In this document: positions 7,359 to 31,013 of the stretch, one piece after another
Layout: every line of letters starts with the position of its first letter
How positions within the stretch are numbered: the stretch's first letter is position 1
From: Chromatiales bacterium 21-64-14
GTDB lineage: Bacteria > Pseudomonadota > Gammaproteobacteria > 21-64-14
DNA length: 64,000 nt
Direction: 5' to 3'
NCBI GenBank assembly: GCA_002255365.1
Contig: NCBI01000006.1
Span: forward strand, 18,742-82,741
Notes under the pieces: generated by a model
Seen by the model: only the letters and a program-made list of their open reading frames with translations
Database searches by the model: none
What the model was told of the DNA's origin: nothing
Made by a program: the position numbers and the translations under genes

Positions 7359-7413
7359 GTTGCAGTGCGAGATCCCGGCTGCCGTGGCGTCGCCGCCCAT
7401 GGGATCGCGCGGG

Positions 7414-8987: not shown

Positions 8988-9746
8988 TCAAAAATGATAG
9001 AACATGCCGGCGTAGGGACCTCGCCAAGTGATGTCCGCGTTAACATTCTGGAAGCCGTTCAACCGAATTTTCTGTCCGCGCCAGCCGATCTCGGCGCCGA
9101 GTCCCAGGCGGCTTTCGTAGGCGCCCTTCAGGGTGTAATCCAACAGCCGGCTGCCCGCATAGCGCGTGTAGCTCGCGTTTGCGCCTACCGAGGTTCCCGG
9201 GATCGGCAAGGGGATCACGGCATTCGCGTATAGCATGGGTACGGCACCCGAAACCCGCGTGCGCTCGAACTGAGTGCCGGACTGGACCTGTACATCACCG
9301 TTTAGGTACTTCACGTCCACGCCCAGATCCACCTGCATCCAAGTGCGGAGCAGCGAGTAATAGAGCACGGCATCGTATTGGTCGAGTGCCGCTTGGCTGG
9401 CGATGTTCTCGGACGTGGTGAATGTTGTTCCACCAAAGGTCAGGTCGCGGGACAAGGTACTGGCGCCGCCAGTGGAGGCATTGGTATAGACCAGGCGTAG
9501 GTTGGGGAGCAGCGGGATCGGGGATTCGAGGGTAAGCCATGCAAACGCCGCAGTGCGGCGCCCCAATCCGAGATCACGATTCAGGTCCAGGGTGTCGCCT
9601 TGGTACTGGACCGTCCCGCGCGGATCGTGATTCCATCCGCCAGCCCCGACCCAGACCGAGGGGGTGGCCGCGGCGGCGATGGAGACCAGGGCACTGCCTA
9701 GACCCAGGGACACCAGGGCGGCGATGTATTTCCAGTGACGTCCCAT
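8988..9746 (-). CDS. outer-membrane beta-barrel protein (signal peptide, C-terminal Phe)
   Basis: Signal peptide MGRHWKYIAALVSLGLGSALVSIAAAA; alternating amphipathic strands; terminal ...GMFYHF typical of OM barrel proteins. Confidence 0.5.
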   Translation of the reverse strand: MGRHWKYIAALVSLGLGSALVSIAAAATPSVWVGAGGWNHDPRGTVQYQGDTLDLNRDLGLGRRTAAFAWLTLESPIPLLPNLRLVYTNASTGGASTLSRDLTFGGTTFTTSENIASQAALDQYDAVLYYSLLRTWMQVDLGVDVKYLNGDVQVQSGTQFERTRVSGAVPMLYANAVIPLPIPGTSVGANASYTRYAGSRLLDYTLKGAYESRLGLGAEIGWRGQKIRLNGFQNVNADITWRGPYAGMFYHF

Positions 9747-9959
9747 TGGGTTCCCCCCGGCGTATGGCGGCAGCGGTAGCCGTTGCAGCGTACGGCTGGA
9801 ACCCGATTGGAACTGTGTCCCGGTTCACGCGTCCCGGCCCGTGGGACTGGGGACTACAGACGTTGTCGGCCTCGGGCGGCGGGTGCCCGGTTGCGGTGGA
9901 CGGGTGAACTGCGGCGGGGTATCCGGACCGGGGCGGTCCGGCGCAAGTACCGGGGCGGG

Positions 9960-10307
9960 TCAGCGGGCGAGCCAGCCTACCAGCAGCGCCTCGGGTATGC
10001 GTTCCTGCAACGCGCCGGTGATCTCCGCACAGACGCCGGGTGTGGGCCGGTGGGAGACCCACAGCAGGTTGAGTTTCACGTTGAGTTCCACGAACACCAC
10101 CGCATCATCGAAGCGTGCGCAGACCGCCTGGATCTCCTTCACGCAACGCTGGATGATGCGCTGGGGCTTGTTGCGCAACCCCGGAATGATCATCATGAAA
10201 TCGGCGAGCGCCCGACCGTGCTCGTCATGCAGGGGTACCCGTTTGCGCAGCGGTTCGACGTGTTGCAACGAAGCGCTTTTGGCTAAGTTGAAAGAGTCCA
10301 CCGCCAC
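9960..10307 (-). CDS. hypothetical protein
   Basis: 115-aa ORF with balanced composition; no confident family assignment. Confidence 0.3.
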   Translation of the reverse strand: MAVDSFNLAKSASLQHVEPLRKRVPLHDEHGRALADFMMIIPGLRNKPQRIIQRCVKEIQAVCARFDDAVVFVELNVKLNLLWVSHRPTPGVCAEITGALQERIPEALLVGWLAR

Positions 10308-11630: not shown

Positions 11631-12641
11631 GTGTCCGCCTGGGCGTCCCTGCCCAAGGACGAACTCCTGGATCTGCGAGTTTGCGACTTGGATCTGGAGA
11701 TCCAGGGTACCGATCTGGAGGCCCGGATCGCGCAGTTGTGCGCGGAGCTGGAGCAGCGCGGGTTCGTGTTCCGGCCCCATTTCTGGCTCTCCGACGACTG
11801 GTTCTGCCCGGACGGCGTCCCGGGGGTCGCCATTCCCTTTTACCTTGCCCATCCACGCCTCAAGCACCTGGAGCAGCGGCATATGCTGGAAGCCGAGGGC
11901 GGCACGCGGTCCTCCTGCATGAAGCTGCTGCGTCACGAGACCGGCCACGCCATCGCCAATGCGTACCTGGTTCACCGGCGCCGCGGCTGGCGCAAGCATT
12001 TCGGGAAATCGACCCAGACGTATCCGGACACCTATCTCCCCAAGCCATACAGCAAGCGCTACGTAATCCATTTGGATGACTGGTACGCTCAGAGTCATCC
12101 CGATGAGGATTGGGCCGAGACCTTTGCGGTGTGGTTGAAACCGCATTCGGGGTGGCGTACCCGATACCGGGGCTGGTCGGCGCTGCACAAGCTAGAATAC
12201 GTCGATGAACTGATGGATGAGATTCGGCTGCTACCGCCGCGGGTGCGCAACCGCAGACGCGTGGCGCCGGTACGCACGCTCCGGATGACCCTGCGTGAAT
12301 ACTACGAGGATAAGCAGTCGCGATACGGGGTCGACTATCCCGAGTTCTACGACCGTCATCTGCTGCGGCTTTTCTCCAATGATGAACAATACCGGAACAA
12401 CGAGCCGGCTTCCCATTATATCCGCCGGACGCGGGTCGAAGTACTCGGGATCGTGTCGCGCTGGACCAGCGAATACCGCTACCGCGTTGATCTTGTGATC
12501 CAGGAGATGATGCGGCGTTGTGATAAATTGGGTCTGCGCACAATCCGCGACGATCATCGGATGAAGCTGAACCTGACTTCCTGCTTGGTCATGATCGTAA
12601 TGAGCCACCTTCACAGCGGGAAATTCATGGTGGCCCTATGA
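11631..12641 (+). CDS. putative zinc-dependent metallopeptidase (HExxH)
   Basis: HETGH motif plus downstream DEDWAETFA; family known to pair with ATP-grasp ligases; GTG start. Confidence 0.55.
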   Translation: MSAWASLPKDELLDLRVCDLDLEIQGTDLEARIAQLCAELEQRGFVFRPHFWLSDDWFCPDGVPGVAIPFYLAHPRLKHLEQRHMLEAEGGTRSSCMKLLRHETGHAIANAYLVHRRRGWRKHFGKSTQTYPDTYLPKPYSKRYVIHLDDWYAQSHPDEDWAETFAVWLKPHSGWRTRYRGWSALHKLEYVDELMDEIRLLPPRVRNRRRVAPVRTLRMTLREYYEDKQSRYGVDYPEFYDRHLLRLFSNDEQYRNNEPASHYIRRTRVEVLGIVSRWTSEYRYRVDLVIQEMMRRCDKLGLRTIRDDHRMKLNLTSCLVMIVMSHLHSGKFMVAL

Positions 12642-13663
12642 GAAGGCTGCGAGTCATGTTGCTGGTTCACCCGAGCCTGATTCCCCCCGAAGGTGAGATC
12701 GACGTGACGGATCCGCGCATGCAGATCTACGAGACGGAATACGACGTTCGCAATGCGCTCATCGAGTTGGGGCATGAGGTCCGGGTCGTAGGCGTGTACG
12801 ACGATCTCGCTCCGATCCGGCAGACCATCGAGGAGTGGCGGCCGCATATTGCGTTCAACCTGCTGGAGGAGTTCGCGGGCCACGCGGATTTCGACTATTA
12901 CGTGGTGAGCTATCTCCGCATGATGGGGGTCCCCTATACCGGGTGCAAGCCGCGCGGTCTGGTGCTGGCCCGGGATAAGGCCTTGTCGAAGAAGATTCTC
13001 AAGTACCACCATATCCGGGTCCCCGACTTTGTGGTGTTCCCGCGCGGCAAGGTGCGGCGCAGACTCCCGCCGATCCGCTATCCTATGATCGTCAAGTCGC
13101 TGATCGAGCAGGGGTCGGTGGGGATATCGCGCGCCTCCCATGTGGAGAACGAGGCGCAACTCCGCGAGCGGGTGACGCTCATCCATGAGAAATTCGATTC
13201 CGATGCCATCGCGGAGCAATTTATCGATGGCCGCGAATTGTACGTGACAGTGGTCGGCAATACGCGTTTGGAGGTTTTCCCGATCCGCGAATTGACCTTC
13301 AGTAAGTTAGACGAAGGCGTGCCGCGGATGGCGACCTACAAGGTGAAATGGGACGCAAAATACCGCAAGCGGAGAGGAATCGACTATCAATTCGCCCGCA
13401 CCCTCGCGGAAGGGGTCCATGAACGCATTATCCGGTTGTGCAAACGCATATACCGGGTATTGGACCTGAGTGGCTATGCGCGCGTGGACCTGCGTCTTGA
13501 TACGCAAGGGCGGATTTTCGTTCTGGAGGCAAACCCCAACGCCGGAATCGCTCGCTCCGACGATTGCGCCTGGTCTGCGGAGAAGGCAGGTTTATCCTAC
13601 GGCCAATTCATCCAGCGCCTGCTGAGCCTTGGTCTCCGGGCCGGCCGCAACCGGGACGCGTGA
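12638..13663 (+). CDS. ATP-grasp enzyme, D-Ala-D-Ala-ligase-like (amide-bond forming)
   Basis: ATP-grasp fold motifs (PMIVKSLIEQGSVGIS, GYARVDLRL, FVLEANPNAG); 4-nt start/stop overlap with the upstream peptidase gene. Confidence 0.65.
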   Translation: MRRLRVMLLVHPSLIPPEGEIDVTDPRMQIYETEYDVRNALIELGHEVRVVGVYDDLAPIRQTIEEWRPHIAFNLLEEFAGHADFDYYVVSYLRMMGVPYTGCKPRGLVLARDKALSKKILKYHHIRVPDFVVFPRGKVRRRLPPIRYPMIVKSLIEQGSVGISRASHVENEAQLRERVTLIHEKFDSDAIAEQFIDGRELYVTVVGNTRLEVFPIRELTFSKLDEGVPRMATYKVKWDAKYRKRRGIDYQFARTLAEGVHERIIRLCKRIYRVLDLSGYARVDLRLDTQGRIFVLEANPNAGIARSDDCAWSAEKAGLSYGQFIQRLLSLGLRAGRNRDA

Positions 13664-15230: not shown

Positions 15231-16671
15231 GTGGCGGCTGCTGCGGGGCAGACGGCGGAGACGCTGCGCCGGCGCGGCCCGGAGTGTCGCCGGGCGGCTT
15301 TGGCGGCGGATGGCGAAACATGGTGACGACGTCGAACATCAGACCCGAAAGTGCGTGGAAGCGCATGACCCGGAAGACCAGCGTAGGCAAGGACATCGCC
15401 CGCACCGTACGGACCTCCCGCAAGCGGGGAAGGAACGCGATGGCCACCGTGGCGCGTACCAGCGTGGAGACGAGAAATACGCCGTACAGCACACTGATCC
15501 AGCGTATTTCATGTCCGGCGACGGTGAAGCGGGTGGGCAGTGCACTGGCCAGCCAGGCGCCCAGCATGGCGCCCAGGAACAGACCCACGTTGACCAGTGT
15601 GTTGTGGAAGGCCAGGTAGGTGGTGCGTTTGGGGCTCGGTACAAGATCGTATAGAAAATTTCCGGAACTCAGACTGTAACCCGCCCAACTCAGACCCGCC
15701 AATATCTGCACGGCGATCAGGTACCAAAAGCTGGTGGAGACCAACCACAGGGCGGGTAGAAACGGAATCAGCGACCCGGTGAGCGCGAGGATCAAGCGAT
15801 TTCCGAACGCGTCGCTGATCCGGCCCCAGGTGTTCAGGGTCAGGATCTGGACGACCACGGCGGTGGCGGTGTTGGCCATGAATTGCAGATAGGAGAAATG
15901 CAGGTCCCGCAGCATATAGACAGTGAAAAACGGAGACGCGATGGATACCGCGAACTGCATCAGGAACACGAACAGCGAAAAGCGCAGGAACGACGATTTG
16001 CGCGCGCGTTTCAGCCAGCCGCCGGCCACCAGTTCCTGGACCATGGGGTGGCGGGGCGGTTCGTGCATGCGTGCCAGATGATAGATCGAGACCAAGCGCG
16101 CCACCGCCGCGGCCGCGAAAACCAGGAGATAACCGGTCACGGTGCTTCCGGCCCGGTCGAAGCCGTCTAGCACAAGACCGGCGCTTACCAGGGCCAGGAA
16201 TGCCATTACTGTCGCGTAGCGAGTGCGTCGCCCGAAGTAGCGGCCGCGTTTGCGTTCCGGGACCAGGTCGCCCATCAGGCTGGTCCACTGCGGTGCGATG
16301 AGGTTTCCACACATGTAATAGACCGTGACGCATCCGATCAGGATCATGACGGCGTGGTTTCGGAACAGGAGTGGAAGGAGCGCGAGCGGAAGCCAGGTCA
16401 GGGCCTGGAGTCCGGCACCGGCCAGGATGAGAGTCTTGCGCCGGGGGATGCGCCGTCCCAGCCACGCGGACAGCAACTGGGCGAAGGATCCCAGCAGTGG
16501 CGGCAGGGCAGCGAGCAGCGCGATCTGTTCGGTGCTGGCCTTGAGCAGCAGCGCAAAGGCGGACAGGTAGGTCTCGCCGCCGCCGGACATGACCGAATAG
16601 GCCGCAGCATCACGTACCGAGTGCCGTAGCGAGCGGTCAACCTGGGGGTCTTTCGAATACTGGTGAGTCAC
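15214..16671 (-). CDS. MFS transporter
   Basis: ~12 predicted TM segments; MFS-type loop motif GxLxDRxGRR-like (LGRRIPRRKTL). Confidence 0.7.
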   Translation of the reverse strand: MTHQYSKDPQVDRSLRHSVRDAAAYSVMSGGGETYLSAFALLLKASTEQIALLAALPPLLGSFAQLLSAWLGRRIPRRKTLILAGAGLQALTWLPLALLPLLFRNHAVMILIGCVTVYYMCGNLIAPQWTSLMGDLVPERKRGRYFGRRTRYATVMAFLALVSAGLVLDGFDRAGSTVTGYLLVFAAAAVARLVSIYHLARMHEPPRHPMVQELVAGGWLKRARKSSFLRFSLFVFLMQFAVSIASPFFTVYMLRDLHFSYLQFMANTATAVVVQILTLNTWGRISDAFGNRLILALTGSLIPFLPALWLVSTSFWYLIAVQILAGLSWAGYSLSSGNFLYDLVPSPKRTTYLAFHNTLVNVGLFLGAMLGAWLASALPTRFTVAGHEIRWISVLYGVFLVSTLVRATVAIAFLPRLREVRTVRAMSLPTLVFRVMRFHALSGLMFDVVTMFRHPPPKPPGDTPGRAGAASPPSAPQQPPLTARR

Positions 16672-17054
16672 GGCGGCGGTGGAAGTGGTCCGGGTACGGG
16701 CATCCGCGTTCCGCGCGGGACTGCGGCAAGGCCGGTTCCGGCGGGTGCCCGCGTCGAACGCCGTAGGCCGAGCGCATCACGCTAACCGAGTTCCGCCATC
16801 CACGCAAGGCGCCCGGTCCGGGTAGGGTGTGGACTGCGTTGCGGCGGATTCGCCATTCGGAGTAATCTTTATCATTGGTTGATTTGCCCGCCTTTCCGGG
16901 ATGCGGGCGACCGGAGCCAAGTCGCCCGGCGGTACCGACCGCAGGAGCCGTTCGAGGCGCGGACGATCAGGTTGAGCGGTGCCCCGAGTCCACCGGATTC
17001 GGGCTCAATGCGGCCGGACCCGGAGGGTTTGACCCAGGGGGTTGAAAGTCAGCG

Positions 17055-17330
17055 ATGGGAAAGTCGATATACGTGGGGAATCTGCCCTTCGATACTTCGG
17101 AAAATGAGGTGCGTGCGTTGTTCGCCCAGCACGGCGTGGTGCTTTCCGTCACGCTAGTCACTGACCGCGAGACCGGACAGCCGCGCGGCTTCGGATTCGT
17201 GGAGATGGAGCCGGGAGCCGTCGATACGGCGATCGAGCGACTCAACGGGGCGCAGTTTCAGGGCCGCGCGTTGCGTGTGAACGAGGCCCGCGGCAAGCAT
17301 TCCCGAGATGACGCGCCGCCCGGCGGATAG
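17055..17330 (+). CDS. RNA-binding protein (single RRM, RNP1/RNP2)
   Basis: IYVGNLPF (RNP2) and RGFGFVEM (RNP1) motifs; Gly-rich tail. Confidence 0.8.
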   Translation: MGKSIYVGNLPFDTSENEVRALFAQHGVVLSVTLVTDRETGQPRGFGFVEMEPGAVDTAIERLNGAQFQGRALRVNEARGKHSRDDAPPGG

Positions 17331-17455
17331 CCCGCATTTTTTATGACGCGTCGCGGCGCACGACGCGGTGCGCGGCGATCGGGCGGGAACCTACCAGCGC
17401 TGTGGGATCGGTGGGTCGCGTGCCGCCCGCACCGGCCCGCGGCGTATCCAGGTGC

Positions 17456-17815
17456 CTACGCATCGGAGTCTGGCAGCAGAATCCGGGTGCCTTCGGTGTC
17501 GAGCCCGTCCTCGCTGACGAAGCGCAGCTCCTGTGCTCCCACCCGCAGGACATCCCCGTGTTTCAGCAGATGGCGTGTCGCTGGCTTGCCGTTCACCTGG
17601 GTCCCGTTGGTGCTGCCGAGATCCTCCACGACGACGTCACACAGACTTTCCATGTAGGGACTGGGCCGGACCGTCAGCAGGGCGTGCCGGGTGCTGACGG
17701 TGGGGTCGTCGATCCGGATCTCGTTCTCCGGGCCGCGTCCGACGCGAAGCGTTCCCGAAACTATTTCGTACTCACGGATGGCGGTGCCTTCCAGGCTGTG
17801 TACGAGTTTGGGCAT
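17456..17815 (-). CDS. FHA-domain protein
   Basis: Internal ATG 17815; FHA signature GR..ENEIRIDDPTVSTRHALL...GSTNGTQVNG. Confidence 0.7.
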   Translation of the reverse strand: MPKLVHSLEGTAIREYEIVSGTLRVGRGPENEIRIDDPTVSTRHALLTVRPSPYMESLCDVVVEDLGSTNGTQVNGKPATRHLLKHGDVLRVGAQELRFVSEDGLDTEGTRILLPDSDA

Positions 17816-17873
17816 GGTGTTGCCTCCTTCTGAACCAAGCGGCGTTGCGCTGGTGTGATGGCGTGGGGCGCTA

Positions 17874-20405
17874 TCAGTTCGGACCCCGGCGCCGCCCGCC
17901 CTTGACCTGCTGACGGCATTTTCGCAGTGCCGCGGCCATGGCGGCGCCGTCGCTGTAGCGTTTTTTCGGGTCTTTTTGCAGGGCGGTGTTGATAACCCGG
18001 CCGACGCAGGCGGGCAGGCCACGGCGCTGCTTGCGGATGTCCACGTGACGCTGGTGAGCGATACGGTACATCAAGGTCGCCAGCGAATCCCCGGTAAACG
18101 GCAGTTGGGCGGTGAGCAGCTGATACAGGGTGACACCTAGGGAATACAGGTCCGTCGCCCCGTCCACCCGGTCTCCCGCCACCTGTTCCGGCGACATATA
18201 GGACGGGCTCCCCAACAGGGTTCCGGTGCGGGTGTGATGGCTGTCAGTCAGGGAAGCAATACCGAAGTCGGTCACTTTGATGTTCCCACCATCGCAGGGG
18301 TAGAGGATGTTCCCCGGTTTGATGTCGCGGTGGACCACGCCGCGGTGATGGGCGTAGTCCAATGCGTCCGCCACCTGTGCCCCGACGTCCAGCACTTCTC
18401 CCACGGGCAGGCGCCGGTCCGGTGCCGTGAACGACTCGAGGTTTTCCCCCTCCACGTAGTCCATGGCGATGTAGGCCACGTCGTGCTCTTCACCGACGTC
18501 ATAGATTGTCACGATGTTGGGGTGATCGAGCCGCCCGGCGGCCTGGGCCTCCTGCAGGAAACGCTGTTCGGCCGCCTGCAGGGCGCTGCCTTCGAACTCC
18601 TGGGACAATGCCAGGGTCTTGATGGCCACCGGCCGTCCGATCTTCGGGTCGGCGCCCAGGTAGACCATCCCCATGGTGCCCTTGCCCAGCTCGCGTTCCA
18701 GGCGGTACCGCCCGAGCATGGGTTTCTCCACCCGCGGATCGTTCATCACCAAGGTCTTGGTAGCCCCGAGTCCTACTCCGGCCCCGGCCCCGGCCGCGGA
18801 CGGAAAGTGTTCGGCGACGGATGCCAAGCGCCCGTGGCGCTCCCGTATGTCCCGGTACGCAGCGTCGTGACGGGCGATCCGGGCGTAGACCGCCATGGCC
18901 TTAGGGAACTGGCGGCGGCGCTCGAACTCCTGTCCCAATGAATACAGGGATTCCACCACGGCTGCATCCAGCGGGCAGCGGCACAGGATCTCGAACGCCT
19001 CGTCGAGTCGTCCCTGAGTCTGGAGCGCGGCGTGGGCGGCGGCGACGATTCCACGCATCCGGTGTCCCACCGCGAGCACCATTTGGGTCGTCACCAGGAA
19101 TACCGCCGGTAGTGTCAGGGGCAGCCACAGCAGATGGGTTACGAGTGCGAGCACTTCGGCGTTGAGCAGCAGCAGGGCGAGCGCGCCGCTCAGCCACAGG
19201 CCGCGGCGCCCGTGCATGGCGGAAGGCAGAAGCAGCAGCCATAGCGCCAGCAGGAGAATCAGGGCGCGCTGTGCTCCGAAGAACCACGTCGGTACGGTGA
19301 TACCGGTGCCGTTCAACAGGCTGTCCACCACCGCGGCGTTCCAGGTAACCGGGGTATAGCGCAGCCCCCCGACACCCGGGAACGGCGTCATCTGGTCGGG
19401 CGCGGTGAGACCCACGAGCACGATCCGCTGCCGCAACCGGCTCGCTGGAACCTCGCCTGCCCACCAGCGTGCCAGCGAATAGACAGGTACCGCGAGGCCG
19501 CCGCGGGTATCCCGGGGCGGCTGCGGATACCACCGATAACCCGGCCCTGTGCGGCGCATGAGCTGGCCGATCTGGATCCCACGACCCGGCATCGGTACCA
19601 CGGCGCCCATCGGCATCTCTACCGCCTGGGCCGCGAGCCGCAGCGCGAAGGATGGGAGGCGTTGACCGTCCACCCGGGGGAGCAGCGCGGCGCCCCGCGC
19701 GCGGCGTTGCTGCGTGTGGACCAGGCCTACGCCCGCCGCGCCGCGCATCAGGGACTCGAGGGGTGCGCGTACCACCTGGGGCGGGGTGCCAGGTGGCGCC
19801 AGGAAGGGTCGCAACAGCGTGGGGTAGGGGGGCGGCAGCAGGTCCCGAGCGGTCACCACTGCGGATTGCAAGGCGCCGGGCAGCGGCCGCGTTTCAGAGG
19901 TGGTGTGACCGTAGGCCGCGAGTATGACATTCCGCGTTTCCGCGAGGGCTTGTGCCAGTACGGTATCGGGGTCGGCATGGGCCAGCCATGCACGCACCTC
20001 CCGGGCCCCCGCGCTGTTCATCGTCTGCGCGTCGGCGCGCAGCTGCGCGAGACCCGGCGGTGTCTGGGATCCCGCGAGGGGGAGCAGCAGGCCTACGGCC
20101 CGGGGGTGGACGTCTTGCAGGCGCGTGACGATCCCGGCCAGCAAATCGTGCGGCCAGGGCCACGGACCCATGCGGGCGAGGGTGGCGGTATCGATGGCCA
20201 ACACCGCAACCGCGGCGGAATCCGGCGCAGGGGGCAGGAGGCGCGCGGCGAGTTCGTAGGCACGGTCTTCCACAGATTGCAAGGCGGCCGTGTAGGTGCC
20301 GAGCACCATGCAGCCGGCGGCAATGACAATCAGGAACCGGTGGTGGGTCCAGAGGGCAGGTCGCACAGGTGGGCCGTCCTGACGGTGCCGGGCGCCGAGA
20401 CGCAT
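17874..20405 (-). CDS. CHASE2 sensor domain Ser/Thr protein kinase
   Basis: N-terminal CHASE2-like periplasmic region flanked by TM helices; C-terminal Hanks kinase (GKGTMGMVY, VAIK, HRDIKPGNIL, DFG, SPEQ). Confidence 0.75.
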   Translation of the reverse strand: MRLGARHRQDGPPVRPALWTHHRFLIVIAAGCMVLGTYTAALQSVEDRAYELAARLLPPAPDSAAVAVLAIDTATLARMGPWPWPHDLLAGIVTRLQDVHPRAVGLLLPLAGSQTPPGLAQLRADAQTMNSAGAREVRAWLAHADPDTVLAQALAETRNVILAAYGHTTSETRPLPGALQSAVVTARDLLPPPYPTLLRPFLAPPGTPPQVVRAPLESLMRGAAGVGLVHTQQRRARGAALLPRVDGQRLPSFALRLAAQAVEMPMGAVVPMPGRGIQIGQLMRRTGPGYRWYPQPPRDTRGGLAVPVYSLARWWAGEVPASRLRQRIVLVGLTAPDQMTPFPGVGGLRYTPVTWNAAVVDSLLNGTGITVPTWFFGAQRALILLLALWLLLLPSAMHGRRGLWLSGALALLLLNAEVLALVTHLLWLPLTLPAVFLVTTQMVLAVGHRMRGIVAAAHAALQTQGRLDEAFEILCRCPLDAAVVESLYSLGQEFERRRQFPKAMAVYARIARHDAAYRDIRERHGRLASVAEHFPSAAGAGAGVGLGATKTLVMNDPRVEKPMLGRYRLERELGKGTMGMVYLGADPKIGRPVAIKTLALSQEFEGSALQAAEQRFLQEAQAAGRLDHPNIVTIYDVGEEHDVAYIAMDYVEGENLESFTAPDRRLPVGEVLDVGAQVADALDYAHHRGVVHRDIKPGNILYPCDGGNIKVTDFGIASLTDSHHTRTGTLLGSPSYMSPEQVAGDRVDGATDLYSLGVTLYQLLTAQLPFTGDSLATLMYRIAHQRHVDIRKQRRGLPACVGRVINTALQKDPKKRYSDGAAMAAALRKCRQQVKGGRRRGPN

Positions 20406-20538
20406 GCGCGCCGCAGCTTACGATCGGCATTGTGCCTGGCCGAGGGCACCGGTGCAGCGACCGGGTTCACAGGCCAGCGGGTTCCAGGCCAGGGCATGGC
20501 GATCTGAGCCGTGCCCCGACCTGGGTCCCGGTCCCCGG

Positions 20539-21246
20539 TTAGTCGGCCTTGGTGACCGGTTTCGCCGGCGGCTTGATGGACAGCAGATCGATGTCAAATA
20601 CCAAAGTCTGATTCGGACCGATCGCATCCCCCGCGCCGCGCGCGCCATAGGCGAGTTTACCGGGGATCACGACCTGCCACTTGGAACCCACGGGCATCTG
20701 TTTCAGCGCTTCCTGCCAACCGGGGATTACTTGTCCGACCGGGATCTCAGCGGGTTCGCCGCGCTTGTAGGAACTGTCGAATTCGGTACCGTTCGGCAGG
20801 GTTCCCCGATAGTTCACCACCACTGTGTCCCCGGCCGTGGGCTTCGGGCCGGTACCTTTGTGCAGTACCTTATATTGCAGACCGTCGGGCAGTTCCACCA
20901 CGCCCTTCTTCTTCCGGTTGGCCGCGAGGAAGGCCTCACCCGCCTTCTCGTTTTTCTCTGCCGCCATGGTCCGTTCGGCGATCTTCTTTTTCTGGAATTC
21001 CATTACCGCAACCTGCATCTGCTTAGCGGTGAGCTTGGGGGTCGCCCCGGAGAGCACGTCCCCGACCGCCAAGCTGAGGGCCTTGACGTCCAGATCCACG
21101 CCTTGGTCCTTCAGATTGTGGCCGATCTGGAACCCGATGGCGTAGCTCAGCCGCTCCTTCTCGGTCTTCAGACCGGCGGCGCCCTGAGCCCATGCCCCCA
21201 GCGGGAGGGTCGTAGCCAGGAATGCCAGGAGAAGTTTCTTTTTCAT
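20539..21246 (-). CDS. fkpA: FKBP-type peptidyl-prolyl cis-trans isomerase (periplasmic, FkpA-like)
   Basis: Signal peptide; N-terminal dimerisation helix; FKBP domain (GLQYKVL..G.G..P...D.V.V.Y.G.L.NG..FDSS). Confidence 0.8.
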   Translation of the reverse strand: MKKKLLLAFLATTLPLGAWAQGAAGLKTEKERLSYAIGFQIGHNLKDQGVDLDVKALSLAVGDVLSGATPKLTAKQMQVAVMEFQKKKIAERTMAAEKNEKAGEAFLAANRKKKGVVELPDGLQYKVLHKGTGPKPTAGDTVVVNYRGTLPNGTEFDSSYKRGEPAEIPVGQVIPGWQEALKQMPVGSKWQVVIPGKLAYGARGAGDAIGPNQTLVFDIDLLSIKPPAKPVTKAD

Positions 21247-21889
21247 GATGTCCCCTCAATGGTTGCGAAGTCCGGCGGCGCGCGGGTCGCGTGCGGCGCC
21301 ATGATGAGACCGCAGGCGGATTCGGCGTGGCCTCCCTGGGCCGCCGTGCCCCGGCGTCGGCACCGCGCTATGGTCCCATAACTGAAGCTCCGATCCAAGG
21401 GAGCGGCGTGCCGTTCCGGCGGCCCTGGTACGCTTTACCAGTGAATTCAATAATAAATTGAATTATATATGGATAATTATCAGTAATTATCAAAGAAGCG
21501 GTATAGGCGCGGTGGCAGGTAATGCTCAAGGGTGCCCGACCGGGCGCCGGCACGCGGCAGGGGGATGGGTAACCCACTCGGCGCGGAGGTGGCGCCATGC
21601 ACACGCGGTACTAGATGCCGGAGGACGTTGGCCTTCGGCTCCCGGGCGATCTGCGGTTCTCGTTCCGGGAGAGGCTCCGGGTAGTCCAGCGCTATCTGCG
21701 CGAAGTGCGCCGCGGCCAGCCGGTGATCGGCTTCCCTGGCCACGGGAGAATTCGGGTCCGCGCGGTCTGAACCCCGCTTCACGCCCGTCTGGTTCGGTGC
21801 CGCGCCAGCGTTGCGCGGGCCGCGGTATGTCATGACTTTTAAATATACAGCAGTTACCATGAAATATTTGTGGTCGGCGATAGGACGCC

Positions 21890-23962
21890 ATGGACATCAT
21901 CGACCTGAAGCAGCCAGAACTCTATTTCAATCGTGAACTGAGCCTGTTGGAATTCAGCGACCGCGTATTGGAACAGACCAAGGATGAGACGGCGCCACTC
22001 ATTGAGCGGCTCCGCTTCCTGTGTATCGCCAGTACCAACCTCGACGAATTCTTCGAGATCCGCGTCGCTGGGCTCAAGCAGCGTGCGGAACTGGGCGCAG
22101 TGCAATCCGGGCCCGACAACCGCACTCCCCAGGAGGTGCTGAAGGCAATCAGCGCCAAGGCGCGGAGATTGGTGGATGAACAGTACCGCGTCCTCAACGA
22201 TGTGCTGATCCCGCGGCTCGCCGAGCAGAACATCCGTTTCATCCGCCGTACGGAATGGACCGAGCCTCAGGAGGCATGGGTACGCAAGTACTTTGAAGAA
22301 AGTCTGCTGCCGGTGCTTTCCCCGCTGGGCTTGGATCCGGCTCACCCGTTTCCGCGTATTCTGAACAAGAGCCTCAATTTCATCGTATCTTTGGAGGGCA
22401 AGGACGCCTTCGGGCGCGGTGCCCAGGTGGCGGTGGTTCAGGCCCCGCGGGCGCTGCCGCGCATCATCCAGTTGCCTCCGGAGGACACCGGAGGCGGGCC
22501 TTGTGACTTCGTGTTCCTGTCTTCCGTCATACATGCCTTCATCGATCAGCAGTTCACCGGCATGAAGGTCAACGGTTGTTATCAGTTCCGGGTCACGCGC
22601 AACAGCGACCTGTTCGTGGACGAGGAGGAAATCGACGACCTGTTGCGTGCGGTCGAGGGCGAATTGGCCTCGCGCCGCTACGGGGCGGCAGTGCGCCTGG
22701 AGGTCGCCCATGACTGCCCGGACGACATGGTGGATTATTTGCTGAATAAATTTCAGCTCGGCCGCGACGACCTGTATCAGGTCAACGGGCCGGTGAATCT
22801 GAACCGCCTGTCCGCCGTCTGCGACCTCGTGGACCGTCCGGATCTCAAGTATCCCGGTTTCAGCTCCAGTCTCCCGGCGCGCCTCATGGGCAACCCGGAC
22901 TTGTTCGAAGTGCTGCGCCGTCAGGATATGTTGCTGCACCATCCGTTCGAGTCGTTCCTGCCGGTCATCGACCTCCTGCGTCAAGCCGCATCCGATCCCG
23001 ACGTGCTCGCCATCAAGCAGACTCTTTATCGCACGGGCCCGGAATCCGCGGTGGTGGATGCCTTGGTGGCCGCCGCCCAGGCGGCCAAGGAAGTCACCGT
23101 GATCATCGAGTTGCGGGCGCGCTTCGACGAGGCCGACAATATCGGGTTGGCCACTCGCCTGCAGGAGGCGGGCGCACATGTGGTCTACGGGATCGTCGGG
23201 TTCAAGACCCACGCCAAGATGATGCTGGTGGTGCGGCGCGAGGGGCGCGTGCTGCGTCGCTATGTGCATCTCGGTACCGGAAACTATCATCCCCGGACCG
23301 CGCGGCTGTATACGGATTACGGTTTGTTTACCGCCGATCCGGTGATCGGTGAAGATGTCCACCGGATCTTCCTGCAGCTTACCAGCGTGGGTCGGGCGTC
23401 GAAGATCCGCAAGATCCTCCAGTCCCCGTTCACCCTCCACGAGGGTATGCTCGCGCGGATCGACCGGGAGACCCGGAACGCCGCGGAAGGGCGCGCTGCG
23501 CGCATCATCGTCAAGCTCAATTCGCTGGTGGAGCCGCAGATCATCCAAGCGCTCTACAAGGCCTCCATGGCCGGGGTGCGTGTCGACCTGATCGTGCGCG
23601 GTATCTGCTGCCTGCGCCCCGGAGTTCCGGGGGTGTCGGATCGGATTCGCGTGCGCTCGGTGGTCGGGCGTTTTCTCGAACATACCCGGGTGTATTTCTT
23701 CCACAACGGCGGTGAGCCGGAAGTGTTCTGTGCCAGTGCCGACTGGATGGAGCGCAATTTTTTTCGCCGCGTGGAAGTCTGCTTCCCGATTGAATCGCGC
23801 GCGTTGCGCGAGCGGGTGGTGAAGGAACTCAAACTCTATCTCAAGGACAACACCCAGGCATGGGTGCTCCAGTCCGACGGGTCCTATCAGCGGCGTACCC
23901 CCCGGGGCGGGAGCGCGCCGTTCTCCGTTCAGCAGGCCCTTCTGGCCAGCTTGGCCGGTTAA
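21890..23962 (+). CDS. ppk: polyphosphate kinase 1
   Basis: Colinear with PPK1: ELYFNRELSLLEFNRRVL N-terminus; two PLD-like HKD regions; 690 aa. Confidence 0.9.
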   Translation: MDIIDLKQPELYFNRELSLLEFSDRVLEQTKDETAPLIERLRFLCIASTNLDEFFEIRVAGLKQRAELGAVQSGPDNRTPQEVLKAISAKARRLVDEQYRVLNDVLIPRLAEQNIRFIRRTEWTEPQEAWVRKYFEESLLPVLSPLGLDPAHPFPRILNKSLNFIVSLEGKDAFGRGAQVAVVQAPRALPRIIQLPPEDTGGGPCDFVFLSSVIHAFIDQQFTGMKVNGCYQFRVTRNSDLFVDEEEIDDLLRAVEGELASRRYGAAVRLEVAHDCPDDMVDYLLNKFQLGRDDLYQVNGPVNLNRLSAVCDLVDRPDLKYPGFSSSLPARLMGNPDLFEVLRRQDMLLHHPFESFLPVIDLLRQAASDPDVLAIKQTLYRTGPESAVVDALVAAAQAAKEVTVIIELRARFDEADNIGLATRLQEAGAHVVYGIVGFKTHAKMMLVVRREGRVLRRYVHLGTGNYHPRTARLYTDYGLFTADPVIGEDVHRIFLQLTSVGRASKIRKILQSPFTLHEGMLARIDRETRNAAEGRAARIIVKLNSLVEPQIIQALYKASMAGVRVDLIVRGICCLRPGVPGVSDRIRVRSVVGRFLEHTRVYFFHNGGEPEVFCASADWMERNFFRRVEVCFPIESRALRERVVKELKLYLKDNTQAWVLQSDGSYQRRTPRGGSAPFSVQQALLASLAG

Positions 23963-24099
23963 CGGGCGGTCTACCCGCCGCGCGACAGTCCGCGCTTCGC
24001 GCCGGTGTTTGTCACACGGGCGCGGCGGCGACCTCAGGACGGCGCCCATACCGGTGGCGAACCTCACCATCCCTCGGGCCCACTCATGAACCATGCGCG

Positions 24100-25605
24100 C
24101 TAGGTGATCGTCAGCGTGTAGCCGTCGGCCTTCAGGTAGTCGGCTTCCTGTTCCAGATCCGCCTGAGTGAGAGGATGCGCTTCCATCCACCCCTCCGGAA
24201 AGCGCAGCGCGATGGTTTTCGCATCGCCTTCCAGCTGTATCTGAGGAGGGAGGTTAGGATTGCGGCTGCGATGCACCACCACGGCGAGGCGCAGGATGAG
24301 GGCAAGGCGGGTTGCGGGTTGAATCCACGCCGCGGGCAGTTCGCGCAACACTGCCACGGGAAACTTGCGCCGATGGGCGCGGACGACGGCCGCAAGCAAT
24401 TGCTGGTCACGGCGCGAGAAACCCGCCAGATCGGCGTTGGCGAGCACGTAGGCGCCATGCTTGTGGTAGCCGCTGTGGGCGATGCCCATGCCGAGCTCGT
24501 GCAGCCGCGCGGCCCAGCTCAGCAGGCGTTCCGAGGCATCCTCGTCCAAGGACCATGTCCCCGCCACTTGGCCGAGAAAGTCCAGTGCGGTGCGTTCCAC
24601 CCGCTGGGCCTGTGCGAGATCGACGTTGTAGCGGCTTGCCAAGTTCGTCACGGTGCGCCCGCGCACATCGTCCTGGGCATGACGCCCGATGAGATCGAAC
24701 AGCAGGCCCTCGCGCAGCGCGCCGTCGGATACCCGCATGCGCTCGATGCCCAGCGCCTCGAAGGTGGCCAGGGCCACGGCGACGCCGCCGGGAAACACCG
24801 GGACGCGCGCCTCGCTCACCCCCGGAAGCTTGATCCGGCCCACATGACCGGCCTTCAGCAGGGCCTCCTGCAACCGGCGCAAGGCGGGTAAGGTGATCCC
24901 GGCGTCGCTCCAGCCCGATTCCAGCACCGCGCGGAGGATGGCGCGCAGGGTACCGGATGCGCCGATCGCGTCGCCCCAGCCGAGCCGCCGGAACGCCTCT
25001 ACGTGGGGTTCCAGTTCAGTGCGCGCCGCCAGCTCCGCGCGGCGCCAGCGCTTGGGGGTGATCTCTCCATCCGCGAAGTGGGCGCGACTCATGGTGACAC
25101 AGCCCATGTAGAGGCTTTCCATGTGTACCGGCTCGAAATGCTCGCCGATGATCAGCTCGGTGCTGCCGCCACCGATATCCATGGCGAGTCGTCGGCTACC
25201 GTCGTCGGCCACGCTGTGGGAGACCCCTGCGTAGACCAGCCGCGCCTCCTCGACCCCGGAGATCACCTCGATGGGGTGCCCGAGCGCCTGTTCGGCGGCG
25301 GCCAGGAATTCCGGGGCATTGCGGGCGCTGCGCAAGGTATTGGTGCCGACCGCGCGCACGCTCCCCGGCGCCATATGGCGCAGCCGCTGGCCGAAGCGTT
25401 CCAGGCAGGCGAGGGCGCGCTGCGCCGCCTCCTGCGTGATGCGGCGCTCCGCGTCCAAGCCACCAGCGAGGCGCACCATGTCATGCAGGCGATCGACCAC
25501 ACTGAGCTGCCCGTCCAGGAGCCGGGCGACCAGCATATGGAAGCTGTTAGAGCCGAGATCGACGGCAGCGACGGTCTCGGGTAGGGCTTTCCTGGCGCGG
25601 GGCAC
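24100..25605 (-). CDS. ppx: exopolyphosphatase (Ppx/GppA family)
   Basis: AAVDLGSNSFHMLVARL, DIGGGSTE, LPGVSEARV motifs colinear with E. coli Ppx; GTG 25605 fits the Ppx N-terminus; the ORF frame extends to 25806. Confidence 0.85.
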   Translation of the reverse strand: MPRARKALPETVAAVDLGSNSFHMLVARLLDGQLSVVDRLHDMVRLAGGLDAERRITQEAAQRALACLERFGQRLRHMAPGSVRAVGTNTLRSARNAPEFLAAAEQALGHPIEVISGVEEARLVYAGVSHSVADDGSRRLAMDIGGGSTELIIGEHFEPVHMESLYMGCVTMSRAHFADGEITPKRWRRAELAARTELEPHVEAFRRLGWGDAIGASGTLRAILRAVLESGWSDAGITLPALRRLQEALLKAGHVGRIKLPGVSEARVPVFPGGVAVALATFEALGIERMRVSDGALREGLLFDLIGRHAQDDVRGRTVTNLASRYNVDLAQAQRVERTALDFLGQVAGTWSLDEDASERLLSWAARLHELGMGIAHSGYHKHGAYVLANADLAGFSRRDQQLLAAVVRAHRRKFPVAVLRELPAAWIQPATRLALILRLAVVVHRSRNPNLPPQIQLEGDAKTIALRFPEGWMEAHPLTQADLEQEADYLKADGYTLTIT

Positions 25606-25699
25606 GGGGAATGTGTTAGCTCGGCGACGTGGCTCGGGTGGATCCAGGGACCATTCTGTCCGCTTGCGCCGCCTCCGGCAAGCACGACCGTGGTGTGGG

Positions 25700-26719
25700 T
25701 TATTCCAAGTCCGCGGTTTGCACCGCCCGCAGCGGCGCCGTGCCGCACGTCGCCAAGCGGCGGGCGCTCGCCCGCACCGATTCCAGTAGCGCAGCGTCTT
25801 GGTCAATGCTTCGCGCGTGCAGTACCACCCAGGCGGTGCGGTGGCGGACTACGGACTGTTGCGCCATCGCCATCAGTCCTGGTAATGGGTCGTCCCGCAG
25901 GGTGCGGCGCAATTGTGCCAGCGGCGCGTCGGCGAGCACCGATTCTATCACGCGCAACCCATGGCGTCCGGTGGCCTTGCGTGTCATCGCGCGCAAGCGC
26001 TCCGCCAGTACATGACTGTCCTGGAGTTCCCCGAGCTGATCTTGGAACGCGCTCAACCCAGCCAGTACCCCGGCGCCACCTTCCAGAGGGCCGGCAAAGG
26101 GTTCCAACAGATAACGCACGCTCTTGACGCGCAGGCGTACCCGGTGCGCCTGCGGATCGTCGGGCGCGGACCGTAGTTCTATCAGCGCACGCTCCAGCGC
26201 GTCGGCATAGCGATGGATTTGCACGCCGGTCGCTTGAGCGAATCCCACTGCCCAGGGGGCGGGTCCCCGGCTTCCGAGTCGCGCCAACAGACGTTCCTCG
26301 ATCCGTGCCCAGGCGGCGGGGACGCGCTTTTGCGCGCGACGCCGGGCCCGGACTTGGCGCTGTTCCCACTGGCCGATAAGCCACTCCACCCCGGGACGTT
26401 CCCGTGGCGCAAGTCCCGGGCGCGGGGATCGCAGCCATCCCGACGCGGCTTCGGCGTTGCGAGCGCCATTAGTGGTGCGCCGCAGGCGTCCCAGCGACCT
26501 CGGGATCTTGTCTCCGGTATTCAGCCACGCGCCGTAGGCCCGCAGTATGACCCGCAGGCGCCGCAGCGCCACGCGGAGATTGTGCAGCGCCTCCGGATCA
26601 TCCGTATCTCGCAGCTGTTTGACGCTGGTGCTCACGTTGCGGATCTGGGCAAGGCACCCGCGTCGCGCCCCGTCGACGGCGCTAAGGTGAAACAGGCCGA
26701 TATCCGCTGGCGTTCTCAT
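25700..26719 (-). CDS. CHAD-domain protein (polyphosphate-granule associated)
   Basis: Helical Arg/His-rich repeats with HxLRVALRRLR-type CHAD motifs; immediately upstream of ppx. Confidence 0.6.
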   Translation of the reverse strand: MRTPADIGLFHLSAVDGARRGCLAQIRNVSTSVKQLRDTDDPEALHNLRVALRRLRVILRAYGAWLNTGDKIPRSLGRLRRTTNGARNAEAASGWLRSPRPGLAPRERPGVEWLIGQWEQRQVRARRRAQKRVPAAWARIEERLLARLGSRGPAPWAVGFAQATGVQIHRYADALERALIELRSAPDDPQAHRVRLRVKSVRYLLEPFAGPLEGGAGVLAGLSAFQDQLGELQDSHVLAERLRAMTRKATGRHGLRVIESVLADAPLAQLRRTLRDDPLPGLMAMAQQSVVRHRTAWVVLHARSIDQDAALLESVRASARRLATCGTAPLRAVQTADLE

Positions 26720-27222
26720 AGTGTCTCGCTGTCGCCCAGCTCGCGGAGCTGGCGCGGCGTGTAGGCCCAGCGGAGCACTGCGGTCCCGAACGCAGGCATG
26801 GCAGGAAACTCGAGGAGACAGGCGGCGCCCTTCTTAAAGATAAACATGGGTGGGTCGGTACGGTCCAGGCACGCGCTGACCCACAAGCCCAGGATGGGTT
26901 CATGCCCTACCAGAATCATGACCGTGCCCGCGGTGTGTGTGGAGACCCATTCCAGCAGATCCTCGCCACAGGTGCCGGGCGCAAGAACGGAGGACTGTTC
27001 CAGCGTAACTCCGCCGTAGGCCTGGGCGATGAGTTCCGCGGTCTGTACCGCCCGTAGCAGGGGGCTGCTGACCAACCGCGTTGGTCCGCGAAGAATTCGC
27101 GCGAGTCCGATGGCGCCGCGGCGCATTTTCGCGCGGCCTTCTGGGGTCAGGGGCCGCGTGGCGTCACCGCCGGGGTCGCGGTCCTCCGCGATCGCATGCC
27201 GTACCACAGCGACCTGCAGCAT
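26716..27222 (-). CDS. sixA: phosphohistidine phosphatase SixA-like (histidine phosphatase superfamily)
   Basis: VVRHAIAE...RPLTPEGR (RHG motif) and C-terminal LVGHEP; 4-nt overlap with the CHAD gene; start ATG 27222. Confidence 0.6.
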   Translation of the reverse strand: MLQVAVVRHAIAEDRDPGGDATRPLTPEGRAKMRRGAIGLARILRGPTRLVSSPLLRAVQTAELIAQAYGGVTLEQSSVLAPGTCGEDLLEWVSTHTAGTVMILVGHEPILGLWVSACLDRTDPPMFIFKKGAACLLEFPAMPAFGTAVLRWAYTPRQLRELGDSETL

Positions 27223-27632
27223 GTGGGGGGTCCGCTCCTTAAGAATGGGGATCATGCCGGGGACCGGGCCGGCGTGCCTGCGGTTCAGTATAGGTAGCGG
27301 TTTTCCGGCCCGTCAAATCGTTCCGCGACGGCGCGCGCCGTTAGGATCAGATTCCCGGAAGGAGCTTACAAAAGGGAGTCCTCGATATTCAACTTCCTAT
27401 GGCCTGCAACAGGTGCATCGTTTACCTTATTCCCAATCCCTCCATCTGTTTGAAATATGCGCAAAATGCCGACTTCCGGCACTTGGCGGGTAGGAATCGG
27501 CTTGCGGCCAACGCGGTCGGCGGAAAAGCGTTCCTCCAGGATGTAATTTCAGTTGCGTTCCGACTGTTGGTCGCTCACCCGTAGCCCGCACTCAGTTATA
27601 TTCTGTACTATTTGCGATTTTTGAGATCGGCT

Positions 27633-28400
27633 CTAGTTCCTTCCTGCAATGACGCCCCCATCCACGTCCCATATTGCGCCCGTTACCCAAGCGGCTTTGC
27701 TGGAAAGCAGAAAGCATATGGTGTTGGCGACATCGTCCGGGACACCGATACGTCCGATGGGATGAAAGGCATTGAATGTCGCCAGTGTGGCGTCGATTTG
27801 CTTCGGGTCGATAAAGGCTTCGTATATGGGTGTCTTGACGACCGCGGGTGAGACTGCATTGACACGGATATTGTGGTCGGCCAGTTCCATGGCCATATGC
27901 TGGGTGAGTGAATGGAGGCCTGCCTTTGCCATTGAATAGGCTGACGACGGCGTGGCTTTAATGGCTTGCTTCGCCCACATGGAGCCGATGTTCACGATCG
28001 AGCCACCGCCATGGGTCACCATGTTCTTCGCGACAGCTTGGGAGATAAAGAATAGGGCCTTGTTCAGCGCCATGTAGGTTTCATAGTCCTCCTCGGAGTG
28101 CTCCAGGAAAGGGGTGGGCTTGAAATAGCCAGCCGCGTTTACCAGATACTTGATATGACGGTTATGATCGTTGGCTAGCGCCGTAACGCGTGCGATGCCG
28201 GAGGGCTCATAGAGGTTCGCTTGCAAGGGCTCGATTACGCCATAGTTGGATAGCGCCGCGATGGCGTGCTCGAGCTTTTTTGCGTCGTTGCCGACGATCA
28301 CTGCTTTAGAGCCGGATTCGAGTAGTTGCTTGGCTACGGCATAACCAATGCCGCTTGAACCGCCCACAATCATTGCCCATGCTGCGTTTGACGTGGTCAT
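27633..28400 (-). CDS. SDR-family oxidoreductase
   Basis: [11 protein letters not shown] Rossmann motif; catalytic YxxxK (YSMAKAGL); lower GC (~55%) than surroundings. Confidence 0.75.
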
Positions 28401-28530
28401 CTTTATCTCCTGGTGAATGCGTAGAGGCCGTGGGCGCCACTTTAGTGGCGGCGGTATACTATTGAAAGCCGGTGCAAAGCCATTGGGTAGGCAGTTTTCG
28501 GCGCATTTTCATGAAAAACATAGGGAATAA

Positions 28531-28854: not shown

Positions 28855-29007
28855 TGACATCGAGCGCAGACGCCGCAAGTTTGGCGTTGGAGTTCCTGCC
28901 GCCCATAGGCGGTTGCCACACGAGCTTCCGGCGACGCTGTTGTTTGCCGGAATGGGAAAAAAAAGGGGAGTCTCGTAGGGTAACGTGCGAATAGTGGAAT
29001 AGGGGGG

Positions 29008-30042: not shown

Positions 30043-30118
<76 letters not shown>

Positions 30119-30908: not shown

Positions 30909-31013
30909 GTGCTCAGGGGGTGTTTCCCCGCGCCGCACAAGGCGGCTCGGTCGCTGTGACTGGAGCATCGTGATGCGCCTCCCTGCGCCGGTTCATCGGG
31001 TGCCGCCGTCGGC

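Follow-up and report, generated by a model that had tools for sequence, protein, structure and literature searches.

A conserved gene pair for a CHASE2-sensor Ser/Thr kinase and a small FHA protein in a gammaproteobacterial genome

The DNA stretch analysed here, referred to below as the window, comprises 64,000 nucleotides (64 kb) of contig NCBI01000006.1 (positions 18,742 to 82,741) of Chromatiales bacterium 21-64-14, and its minus strand carries the genes of a membrane-bound Hanks-type Ser/Thr kinase with a CHASE2 sensor domain and of a small protein consisting of a single FHA domain. Comparison with homologous loci indicates that this kinase-FHA pair is a genuine, conserved two-gene signalling module: the two genes keep their adjacency and orientation in 12 independent contexts, in which kinase identity falls as low as 35% and the flanks change. 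It is quite probable that the two proteins act as a cognate signalling pair. The clade to which the window belongs has no PP2C phosphatase gene in the operon, and a conserved GarA-like threonine motif located C-terminal to the FHA domain is a new detail of the system.

Domain content and conservation of the gene pair

The kinase gene (17874..20405, minus strand) is an open reading frame (ORF) of 843 amino acids (aa), in which Pfam detects CHASE2 and Pkinase domains above the gathering cut-offs, and which has full-length orthologues of 36-59% identity. It is followed on the same strand by the FHA gene (17456..17815, 119 aa, Pfam FHA), with a gap of 58 nt (17816-17873) between them. The original prediction, made from the nucleotide sequence, had described an 843-aa CHASE2 kinase and a 119-aa FHA protein encoded in the same orientation 58 nt apart, and these sizes and positions proved exact; the CHASE2, Pkinase and FHA domains that it proposed to search for were all matched by Pfam above the cut-offs, and its description of a compact eukaryotic-like phospho-signalling pair, in which a Hanks-type receptor kinase is joined by a phosphothreonine reader, is supported. 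Its assignment of the pair to a gammaproteobacterium agrees with the 100% identity of the FHA protein to a protein from the metagenome-assembled genome (MAG) of Chromatiales bacterium 21-64-14 and the 99% identity of the kinase to a protein from a Gammaproteobacteria bacterium MAG.

The ORF of the FHA gene, as delimited mechanically, opens at GTG 18022. The ATG at 17815 was taken as the real start, giving 119 aa, because a Shine-Dalgarno sequence, GGAGG (17823-17827, minus strand), precedes it with a 7-nt spacer and because all FHA orthologues begin with M-[PA]-K-L at this very point. The longer version of 188 aa was rejected, as it would overlap the kinase gene by 149 nt and is supported by none of the orthologues, while the strong Shine-Dalgarno sequence belongs to ATG 17815. 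An ORF of 143 aa on the plus strand (17402..17833), which lies over the FHA gene, was treated as an artefact of high GC content.

Homologues of the pair were compared at two levels of divergence. A search of 5.8 billion protein clusters yielded about 25 kinase clusters at 90% identity, and the FHA representatives number at least 20. Kinases of the closer clade, which comprises the window and the loci L064, L065, L066/67, L071, L074 and L075, share 40-58% identity and align over the full length, including CHASE2. In all seven of these independent contexts a gene for an FHA protein of 117-122 aa directly follows the kinase gene on the same strand, and the genes located farther out vary from one context to another. 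Since the kinase-FHA order is kept in seven of seven closer contexts while the flanks differ, the pairing goes beyond chance. Two of these loci, L074 and L075, were reached from the FHA side, starting from the FHA orthologues P0127 and P0128, and the kinase orthologue was found directly upstream in both, which makes them a reciprocal test (the L074 sequence ends inside the kinase gene). Paralogous kinase or FHA genes were not found in the 64-kb window.

The more distant relatives (L001, L002, L070, L072 and L073; 35-40% kinase identity) show another arrangement, in which the kinase gene is followed by a PP2C gene and then by the FHA gene (five of five). Of the FHA proteins at these loci, that of L070 is short (122 aa); the others measure 218-235 aa and end in a second, degenerate FHA-like domain at the C-terminus. 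At one further locus, L005, where the kinase match is partial (residues 476-827), the FHA gene is convergent. The original prediction had also stated that no PP2C phosphatase is encoded next to the pair. This holds for the whole window, where tblastn with two PP2C proteins of the relatives gave a best E value of 0.68, and PP2C was likewise not found in the flanks of the six other loci of the closer clade. Because the distant members of the kinase family carry PP2C between the kinase and FHA genes, its absence is better read as a derived state, and the clade of the window is probably a phosphatase-less, trimmed form of the classical kinase/phosphatase/FHA triad. On a parsimonious reading, the triad is the fuller form of the family, and in this clade the operon has probably lost the PP2C gene along with the second FHA-protein domain.

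The kinase is predicted to be a receptor of the standard CHASE2 layout. The CHASE2 domain (PF05226; residues 31-392; 19230..20315, minus strand; E 2.6e-28, 99.7 bits against a cut-off of 26.3) covers profile positions 3-254 of 257, and its GPWPWP motif (G80, W82, P83, W84) is invariant in a nine-sequence kinase alignment. Hydropathy analysis predicted a first transmembrane (TM) helix at residues ~23-42, so that CHASE2 lies between TM1 and TM2, and three helices after CHASE2 at residues ~375-450 (19056..19283, minus strand), with segments at about 375-397, 403-425 and 428-450 and peaks of the 19-residue Kyte-Doolittle window at 382-391, 411-421 and 426-439. Three residues of these later helices, W427, P433 and L437, are invariant in the nine-sequence alignment. 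This order, one TM helix, then about 330 residues, then three TM helices, is the standard CHASE2 topology by hydropathy, and therefore the CHASE2 domain is predicted to be periplasmic and the kinase domain cytoplasmic.

A conserved, TPR-like juxtamembrane linker follows on the cytoplasmic side (residues ~455-530, QGRLDEAF...EFERRRQF...YRD; 18816..19043, minus strand). Alignment A2 shows no variation in this linker at G465, A470, E495, R496, R498, A503 and D519, and faint precomputed matches to TPR_2 and TPR_14 are present on the kinase orthologues P0019, P0020, P0021 and P0026. Just before this hairpin (residues ~459-465, nt ~19011-19031) the window kinase is about 11 residues short in comparison with all eight aligned orthologues (A2 columns ~505-515).

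The protein kinase catalytic domain (Pkinase, PF00069; residues 567-818; 17952..18707, minus strand) was detected with an E value of 1.5e-52 and 179 bits against a cut-off of 31.7. Its catalytic motifs are complete (G574-x-G576, V593-A-I-K596, E619, H692-R-D694, N699, D713-F-G715 and S738-P-E740), and all of them are invariant in the nine-sequence alignment (37-59% identity); among them are K596 of VAIK, H692-R-D694 and D713-F-G715, the residues on whose presence the original prediction had made itself depend. The enzyme is predicted to perform Ser/Thr phosphotransfer. The closest solved kinases are PknB and PknA of Mycobacterium tuberculosis and pneumococcal StkP (E ~1e-48). The activation loop contains the threonines T725-R-T727-G-T729 (18219..18233, minus strand), a candidate site of autophosphorylation and FHA docking; all of nine orthologues have T725, and position 727 holds either T or S. 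The T725/T727 pair is aligned with T-Q-T in the activation loop of PknB, where T171 and T173 are the sites of autophosphorylation.

FHA domains are dedicated phosphothreonine readers, and the FHA protein of the window appears to be equipped for this function. The FHA domain (PF00498, residues 24-93) was detected with an E value of 2.9e-19 and 69.7 bits against a cut-off of 20.7, and the pocket residues G26, R27, S41, H44, S68, T69, N70 and G71 are invariant in alignments of 18-20 sequences, so that the protein with its intact pocket is predicted to bind phosphothreonine. An AlphaFold2 model (mean predicted local distance difference test score, pLDDT, 84.7) shows residues 1-100 as a confident eleven-strand-type beta-sandwich (pLDDT ~79-94 per 10-residue block) and the tail, residues 101-119, with low confidence (pLDDT 52-58). 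Foldseek matched this model to FhaA (Rv0020c), GarA and OdhI with a probability of 1.00. Together with a profile search of the PDB, it gave GarA/OdhI, FhaA and the FHA domain of Bdellovibrio DgcB as the nearest solved relatives, with 6i2p (PknB bound to GarA) and 6hc1 (DgcB FHA with a phosphopeptide) among the structural matches. The nearest solved relatives are, in other words, FHA proteins that bind a tail or a kinase.

The tail threonine motif and known FHA systems

The tail of the FHA protein contains the motif E108-G-T110-R-I-L-L-P-D116 (17468..17494, minus strand), a candidate phospho-acceptor and FHA ligand, as judged from its conservation in 30 non-identical FHA proteins. Eighteen of these proteins were confirmed to be encoded beside the kinase gene, and one (L071, 226 aa) is encoded 3.5 kb upstream of it. 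The other 11, namely nine full-length short FHA proteins, a 96-aa fragment and a 243-aa two-domain form, were taken without genomic context from a representative library at 50% identity, whose profile search returned mostly multi-FHA proteins.

The consensus of the motif is [ED]-x-T-[RMA]-I-[LY]-[LI]-P-[DE], where T corresponds to T110 of the window protein. The threonine is present in 30 of 30 sequences and an acidic residue, E or D, occupies position -2 in 26 of them. Positions +2 (I/L/V) and +3 (L/Y/I/V/F/M) agree in all 30, counts that are partly built in, as the tails were extracted by the pattern T-x-[ILV]-[ILVYFM]; T110 and I112 are also invariant in alignment A5, which comprises nine sequences and was made free of the pattern. 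At the later positions of the motif, L/I is found at +4 in 24, P at +5 in 16 and D/E at +6 in 23 of the 30 sequences, and positions -4, -3, -1 and +7 are variable, each with at least eight different residues. Position +1 is R in 17, M in five and A in four sequences, and the activation-loop site of the kinase is likewise T-R/K in the nine-sequence alignment. The distance from the STNG motif to the tail threonine is 42-43 residues in 26 of the 30 proteins. The motif is also kept in the long two-domain FHA forms, where it is located between the two domains. It does not occur in a related subfamily of 130-aa FHA proteins, one member of which, P0144, the only one with a readable context, has no kinase gene within 6 kb.

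In its sequence this motif resembles the phospho-switch motif of GarA and OdhI, placed on the opposite side of the domain. The GarA motif, E20-T21-T22-S-V-F-R-A-D28, was verified in PDB chain 2kfu_A ('Rv1827 pThr 22'). The systems PknB-GarA of M. tuberculosis and PknG/PknB-OdhI of Corynebacterium glutamicum are alike to the window pair in several respects: they combine a transmembrane RD (arginine-aspartate) Hanks kinase carrying a T-x-T activation loop with a small single-FHA-domain protein (GarA and OdhI being the nearest solved relatives of the window protein), and GarA has a flexible tail with the same pattern, E-x-T-x-hydrophobic-hydrophobic-x-x-D. The differences are also clear. The tail of GarA is N-terminal and about 30 residues away from the domain, whereas that of the window protein is C-terminal and about 10 residues away; the sensor of PknB is PASTA, whereas that of the window kinase is CHASE2; and the hosts of the known systems are actinobacterial, whereas the host here is a gammaproteobacterium, in which the kinase and FHA genes are adjacent. 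In line with this, the window FHA protein scored 41.4 bits with the OdhI equivalog model NF041660 (cut-off 200), and it does not have the N-terminal ETTS phospho-acceptor tail of GarA/OdhI, as its FHA domain starts at about residue 3. GarA and OdhI are characterised by phosphorylation-independent binding to 2-oxoglutarate dehydrogenase and related enzymes (KGD/ODH E1, GDH, GOGAT). The one neighbour that recalls this is intriguing yet anecdotal: L074 carries a sucA-like 2-oxoglutarate dehydrogenase E1 gene on its plus strand (5827-8496), about 3.3 kb past the FHA gene on the downstream side, seen at this single locus and not conserved.

In the H1 type VI secretion system of Pseudomonas aeruginosa, PpkA-PppA-Fha1 (a threonine phosphorylation pathway; background in PMC6213207), a proteobacterial membrane Hanks kinase is likewise combined with an FHA protein. 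In the family studied here a PP2C accompanies the pair only in the distant relatives and not in the window, the sensor domain differs and the window FHA protein is much smaller. It reached 32.3 bits with the TagH/Fha model TIGR03354 (cut-off 120.25), no type VI secretion genes were found among the annotated window genes, and the score with the FhaB/FipA (Rv0019c) equivalog NF049868 was 43.1 bits (cut-off 125). Another comparison is provided by DgcB (FHA-GGDEF) of Bdellovibrio bacteriovorus, whose FHA domain recognises, in trans, a flexible tail that is phosphorylated and belongs to the same protein family (PDB 6hc1/6hc0). Unlike the stand-alone FHA protein of the window, DgcB carries its tail at the N-terminus and has its FHA domain joined to a diguanylate cyclase.

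On the sensor side, the same N-terminal module and topology are found in the adenylate cyclases CyaD1, CyaD2 and CyaK of Sinorhizobium meliloti and in cyanobacterial CHASE2 Ser/Thr kinases. The S. meliloti receptors have a cyclase as output, whereas the window receptor has as its output a kinase to which an FHA protein is dedicated. A 2007 survey of cyanobacteria (PMC2176072) already lists the combination of CHASE2 and Pkinase. An outer-membrane protein mediates the response of CHASE2 adenylate cyclases to an external cue (PMC13001267), and it is only for adenylate cyclases that the function of CHASE2 is known (PMC13001267); a functional study of a CHASE2 Ser/Thr kinase was not found in the literature searched. 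Taken by domain content and sequence, the window pair is akin to PknB-GarA/OdhI and to the kinase-PP2C-FHA triads, yet lies outside those specific families.

For Actinobacteria and for type VI secretion, there is a good understanding of Hanks kinases and their FHA partners. The CHASE2-sensor receptor kinases have so far only been catalogued, and the locus described here offers a small, clean and conserved kinase-FHA unit. The domain content of the pair and the pairing itself are what a specialist would expect, and nothing established is overturned; the points of modest interest are the phosphatase-less operon of the clade and, C-terminal to the FHA domain, a conserved threonine motif like that of GarA. 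The single invariant threonine of the tail gives a precise hypothesis that is cheap to address and a convenient entry to CHASE2 kinase signalling.

Proposed mechanism and alternative explanations

The following sequence of events may be proposed for the pair. The periplasmic CHASE2 domain would sense an extracytoplasmic cue, and the signal would pass through the three TM helices and the TPR-like hairpin to the RD Hanks kinase domain, which, by homology to PknB, would autophosphorylate at T725/T727. The FHA protein might then dock on the phosphorylated kinase via R27, S41 and N70, by analogy with PknB and GarA, where the phosphorylated activation loop of PknB recruits GarA (Villarino et al. 2005, as cited in PMC6213207). 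The kinase could then phosphorylate T110 in the E-G-T-R-I-L-L-P-D tail, as its conservation suggests, and it may be speculated that the phosphorylated tail would bind the FHA domain in cis or in trans and so switch the binding of an effector, in a switch resembling that of GarA/OdhI, though built on a C-terminal tail. Since T110 is located only about 10 residues from the last strand, binding of the tail in trans, as in DgcB, may be likelier than an intramolecular closure of the GarA type.

A specific phospho-switch at T110 is put forward tentatively, as a possibility that falls somewhat short of an even chance. Slightly more doubtful is the complete proposal, in which the 119-aa protein would be a 'reversed GarA', a stand-alone FHA switch phosphorylated by a CHASE2 receptor kinase in response to a periplasmic cue. 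Its phosphorylation would toggle the binding of an effector in the cytoplasm, which, as with GarA/OdhI, might be a metabolic enzyme, and no phosphatase encoded in the operon would take part. Should this be true, a CHASE2 Ser/Thr kinase would for the first time have a function assigned to it, and regulation by GarA-type phospho-switches would reach from Actinobacteria to Gammaproteobacteria.

Several observations weigh against the proposal of a cognate pair working through a tail switch. Four kinase relatives (L003, L004, L068 and L069; 33-40% identity) have no adjacent FHA gene, and therefore the kinase can occur without a partner encoded in its operon. The genome may still encode a phosphatase outside the 64-kb window. 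The short distance of ~10 residues between T110 and the last FHA strand may make intramolecular binding of the tail sterically strained, AlphaFold2 gave the tail no confident placement, and an interaction in trans or a phosphorylation-independent docking role of the tail is equally possible. Finally, no effector gene is conserved beside the pair, and the literature searches found no experimental data on any member of the kinase-FHA family.

A phosphorylation-independent role of the tail is the core of the most serious alternative, in which the FHA protein serves the kinase solely as regulator or scaffold, for instance by clamping its phosphorylated activation loop or bridging its dimers, and the tail is a docking strand for the kinase or another partner. 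The strongly hydrophobic R-I-L-L-P segment could indeed add a beta-strand, the motif is very near the end of the domain, and in the long two-domain forms it is kept within an interdomain linker. Against this, the threonine is the one strictly invariant residue of the tail (30 of 30), and the acidic residue at -2 and the hydrophobic residues at +2/+3 fit both the GarA phospho-motif and the usual preference for FHA ligands, as bacterial FHA domains generally favour hydrophobic residues at +2/+3; the tail is also not modelled as a strand by AlphaFold2. The scaffold explanation is, on balance, unlikely.

The RNA-binding protein encoded nearby had led the original prediction to suggest a post-transcriptional output, and on this account the pair would signal to the RRM protein and so control gene expression. 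The RRM gene (17055..17330, plus strand, 91 aa; Pfam RRM_1, E 1.2e-19) does lie just beyond the FHA gene, 125 nt past its stop codon, and L064, the closest relative (58% kinase identity), also has an RRM gene within 3 kb of the pair; the nearness is thus real, and the proposed output is not borne out. The gene is convergent with the FHA gene, on the opposite strand, and in L064 two NIR_SIR (sulfite/nitrite-reductase-like) genes intervene between the RRM and FHA genes. A homologue occurs in only one of 73 fetched loci, and none was found near L065, L066/67, L071, L074 and L075 in the fetched flanks (6-10 kb per side where the contig allowed). As L064 alone shares the gene and is broadly syntenic with the window (FKBP, ppk, ppx, CHAD and ATP-grasp/Peptidase_Mx genes), the common descent of the two loci explains the nearness as inherited local synteny, with no conserved functional link, and signalling to the RRM protein is very improbable.

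Hardly more can be said for the explanation that the kinase serves anti-phage defence as one of the PD-T4-6 or MADS kinases, aided by the FHA protein as an accessory factor, which is given a slightly smaller chance. The PADLOC models of PD-T4-6 and mad6 match the kinase with up to 307 bits, and NCBIfam MAD6 with 152 bits; the latter value, however, compares with a cut-off of 460, and all of the matches, including those of PADLOC for PD-T4-6/MADS6, fall within the generic kinase domain (residues ~560-835). The FHA, FKBP and RRM proteins have no PADLOC matches, and a receptor with CHASE2 and four TM helices in stable housekeeping surroundings (FKBP, ppk/ppx) is atypical of defence islands. The least probable of all is that the kinase and FHA genes are mere neighbours with no functional coupling. 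The four relatives lacking an adjacent FHA gene would be in accord with this, yet it has to face the 12 independent contexts with constant order and orientation, as well as the function of FHA domains as dedicated readers of phosphothreonine.

Neighbouring genes and other parts of the window

The genes annotated around the pair and in the rest of the window include FKBP, ppk, ppx, MFS, methyltransferase and flagellar genes. The gene directly upstream of the kinase encodes an FkpA-like periplasmic FKBP prolyl isomerase (20539..21246, minus strand; Pfam FKBP_N + FKBP_C), is co-oriented with it and is separated from it by 133 nt. An FKBP gene is found in the same place in L064 (58% kinase identity) and L066/67 (44%), and not in L065, L071 and L075, which, with the window, gives three of the six contexts in which the upstream gene is visible (L074 being cut inside the kinase). 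Owing to this limited conservation, FKBP was not adopted as a third component of the system; it is kept as a weak lead, which would pair a periplasmic folding factor with a periplasmic sensor.

Scans of 16600-21900 for terminators, promoters and structures gave nothing that exceeds the shuffled background, and the 128 nt that reach from the RRM gene up to and including the FHA stop codon (17331-17458) fold no better than their shuffles (z = +1.1).

Farther upstream of the pair, a polyphosphate cluster (21890-27255) comprises ppk (plus strand) and, on the minus strand, ppx and the genes of a CHAD-domain protein and a protein of the histidine phosphatase superfamily; it is syntenic beside the pair in L064. 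Also kept in L064 are two genes of the plus strand (11631-13663), one coding for a putative zinc metallopeptidase (Peptidase_Mx) and the other for an ATP-grasp enzyme similar to D-Ala-D-Ala ligases; the two overlap by 4 nt.

Other genes were noted next to homologous loci. In L073, the region past the kinase-PP2C-FHA genes (4148-10128) encodes a CHASE2 adenylate/guanylate cyclase, a class-II phosphodiesterase-like metallo-beta-lactamase and two pilins, and in L002 the same phosphodiesterase-like gene follows the triad (5667-8878), together with an 807-aa ORF read by eye as a secretion ATPase of the GspE/PilB type. The second FHA protein of L071 (226 aa) is encoded beside two PilT-like ATPases (1-2515). 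These genes give hints of a cyclic-nucleotide or type IV pilus output in the lineages of L073, L002 and L071, and nothing comparable adjoins the window pair. In L075 alone, a gene of the BLH_phosphatase family (6216-6686, minus strand) is located 0.5 kb downstream of the FHA gene.

A large part of the window is occupied by a flagellar and chemotaxis cluster (30183-46817 and 55013-59640), which encodes a YcgR-like PilZN-PilZ protein, FlgN, FlgA, a methyl-accepting chemotaxis protein with a CZB zinc-binding domain, FlgB-FlgK, FliD and FleQ. A single tRNA was detected in the window by an Rfam scan (30046-30118, minus strand), beside a stretch of lower GC content (28001-30000, GC 0.55). Among the flagellar genes, with the FlgK/FlgL region upstream and FliD downstream, one ORF of 2158 aa (46970-53446, plus strand) combines methyltransferase, sulfotransferase, GT1 and GT2 glycosyltransferase domains, and its product may be a giant flagellin-modification enzyme.

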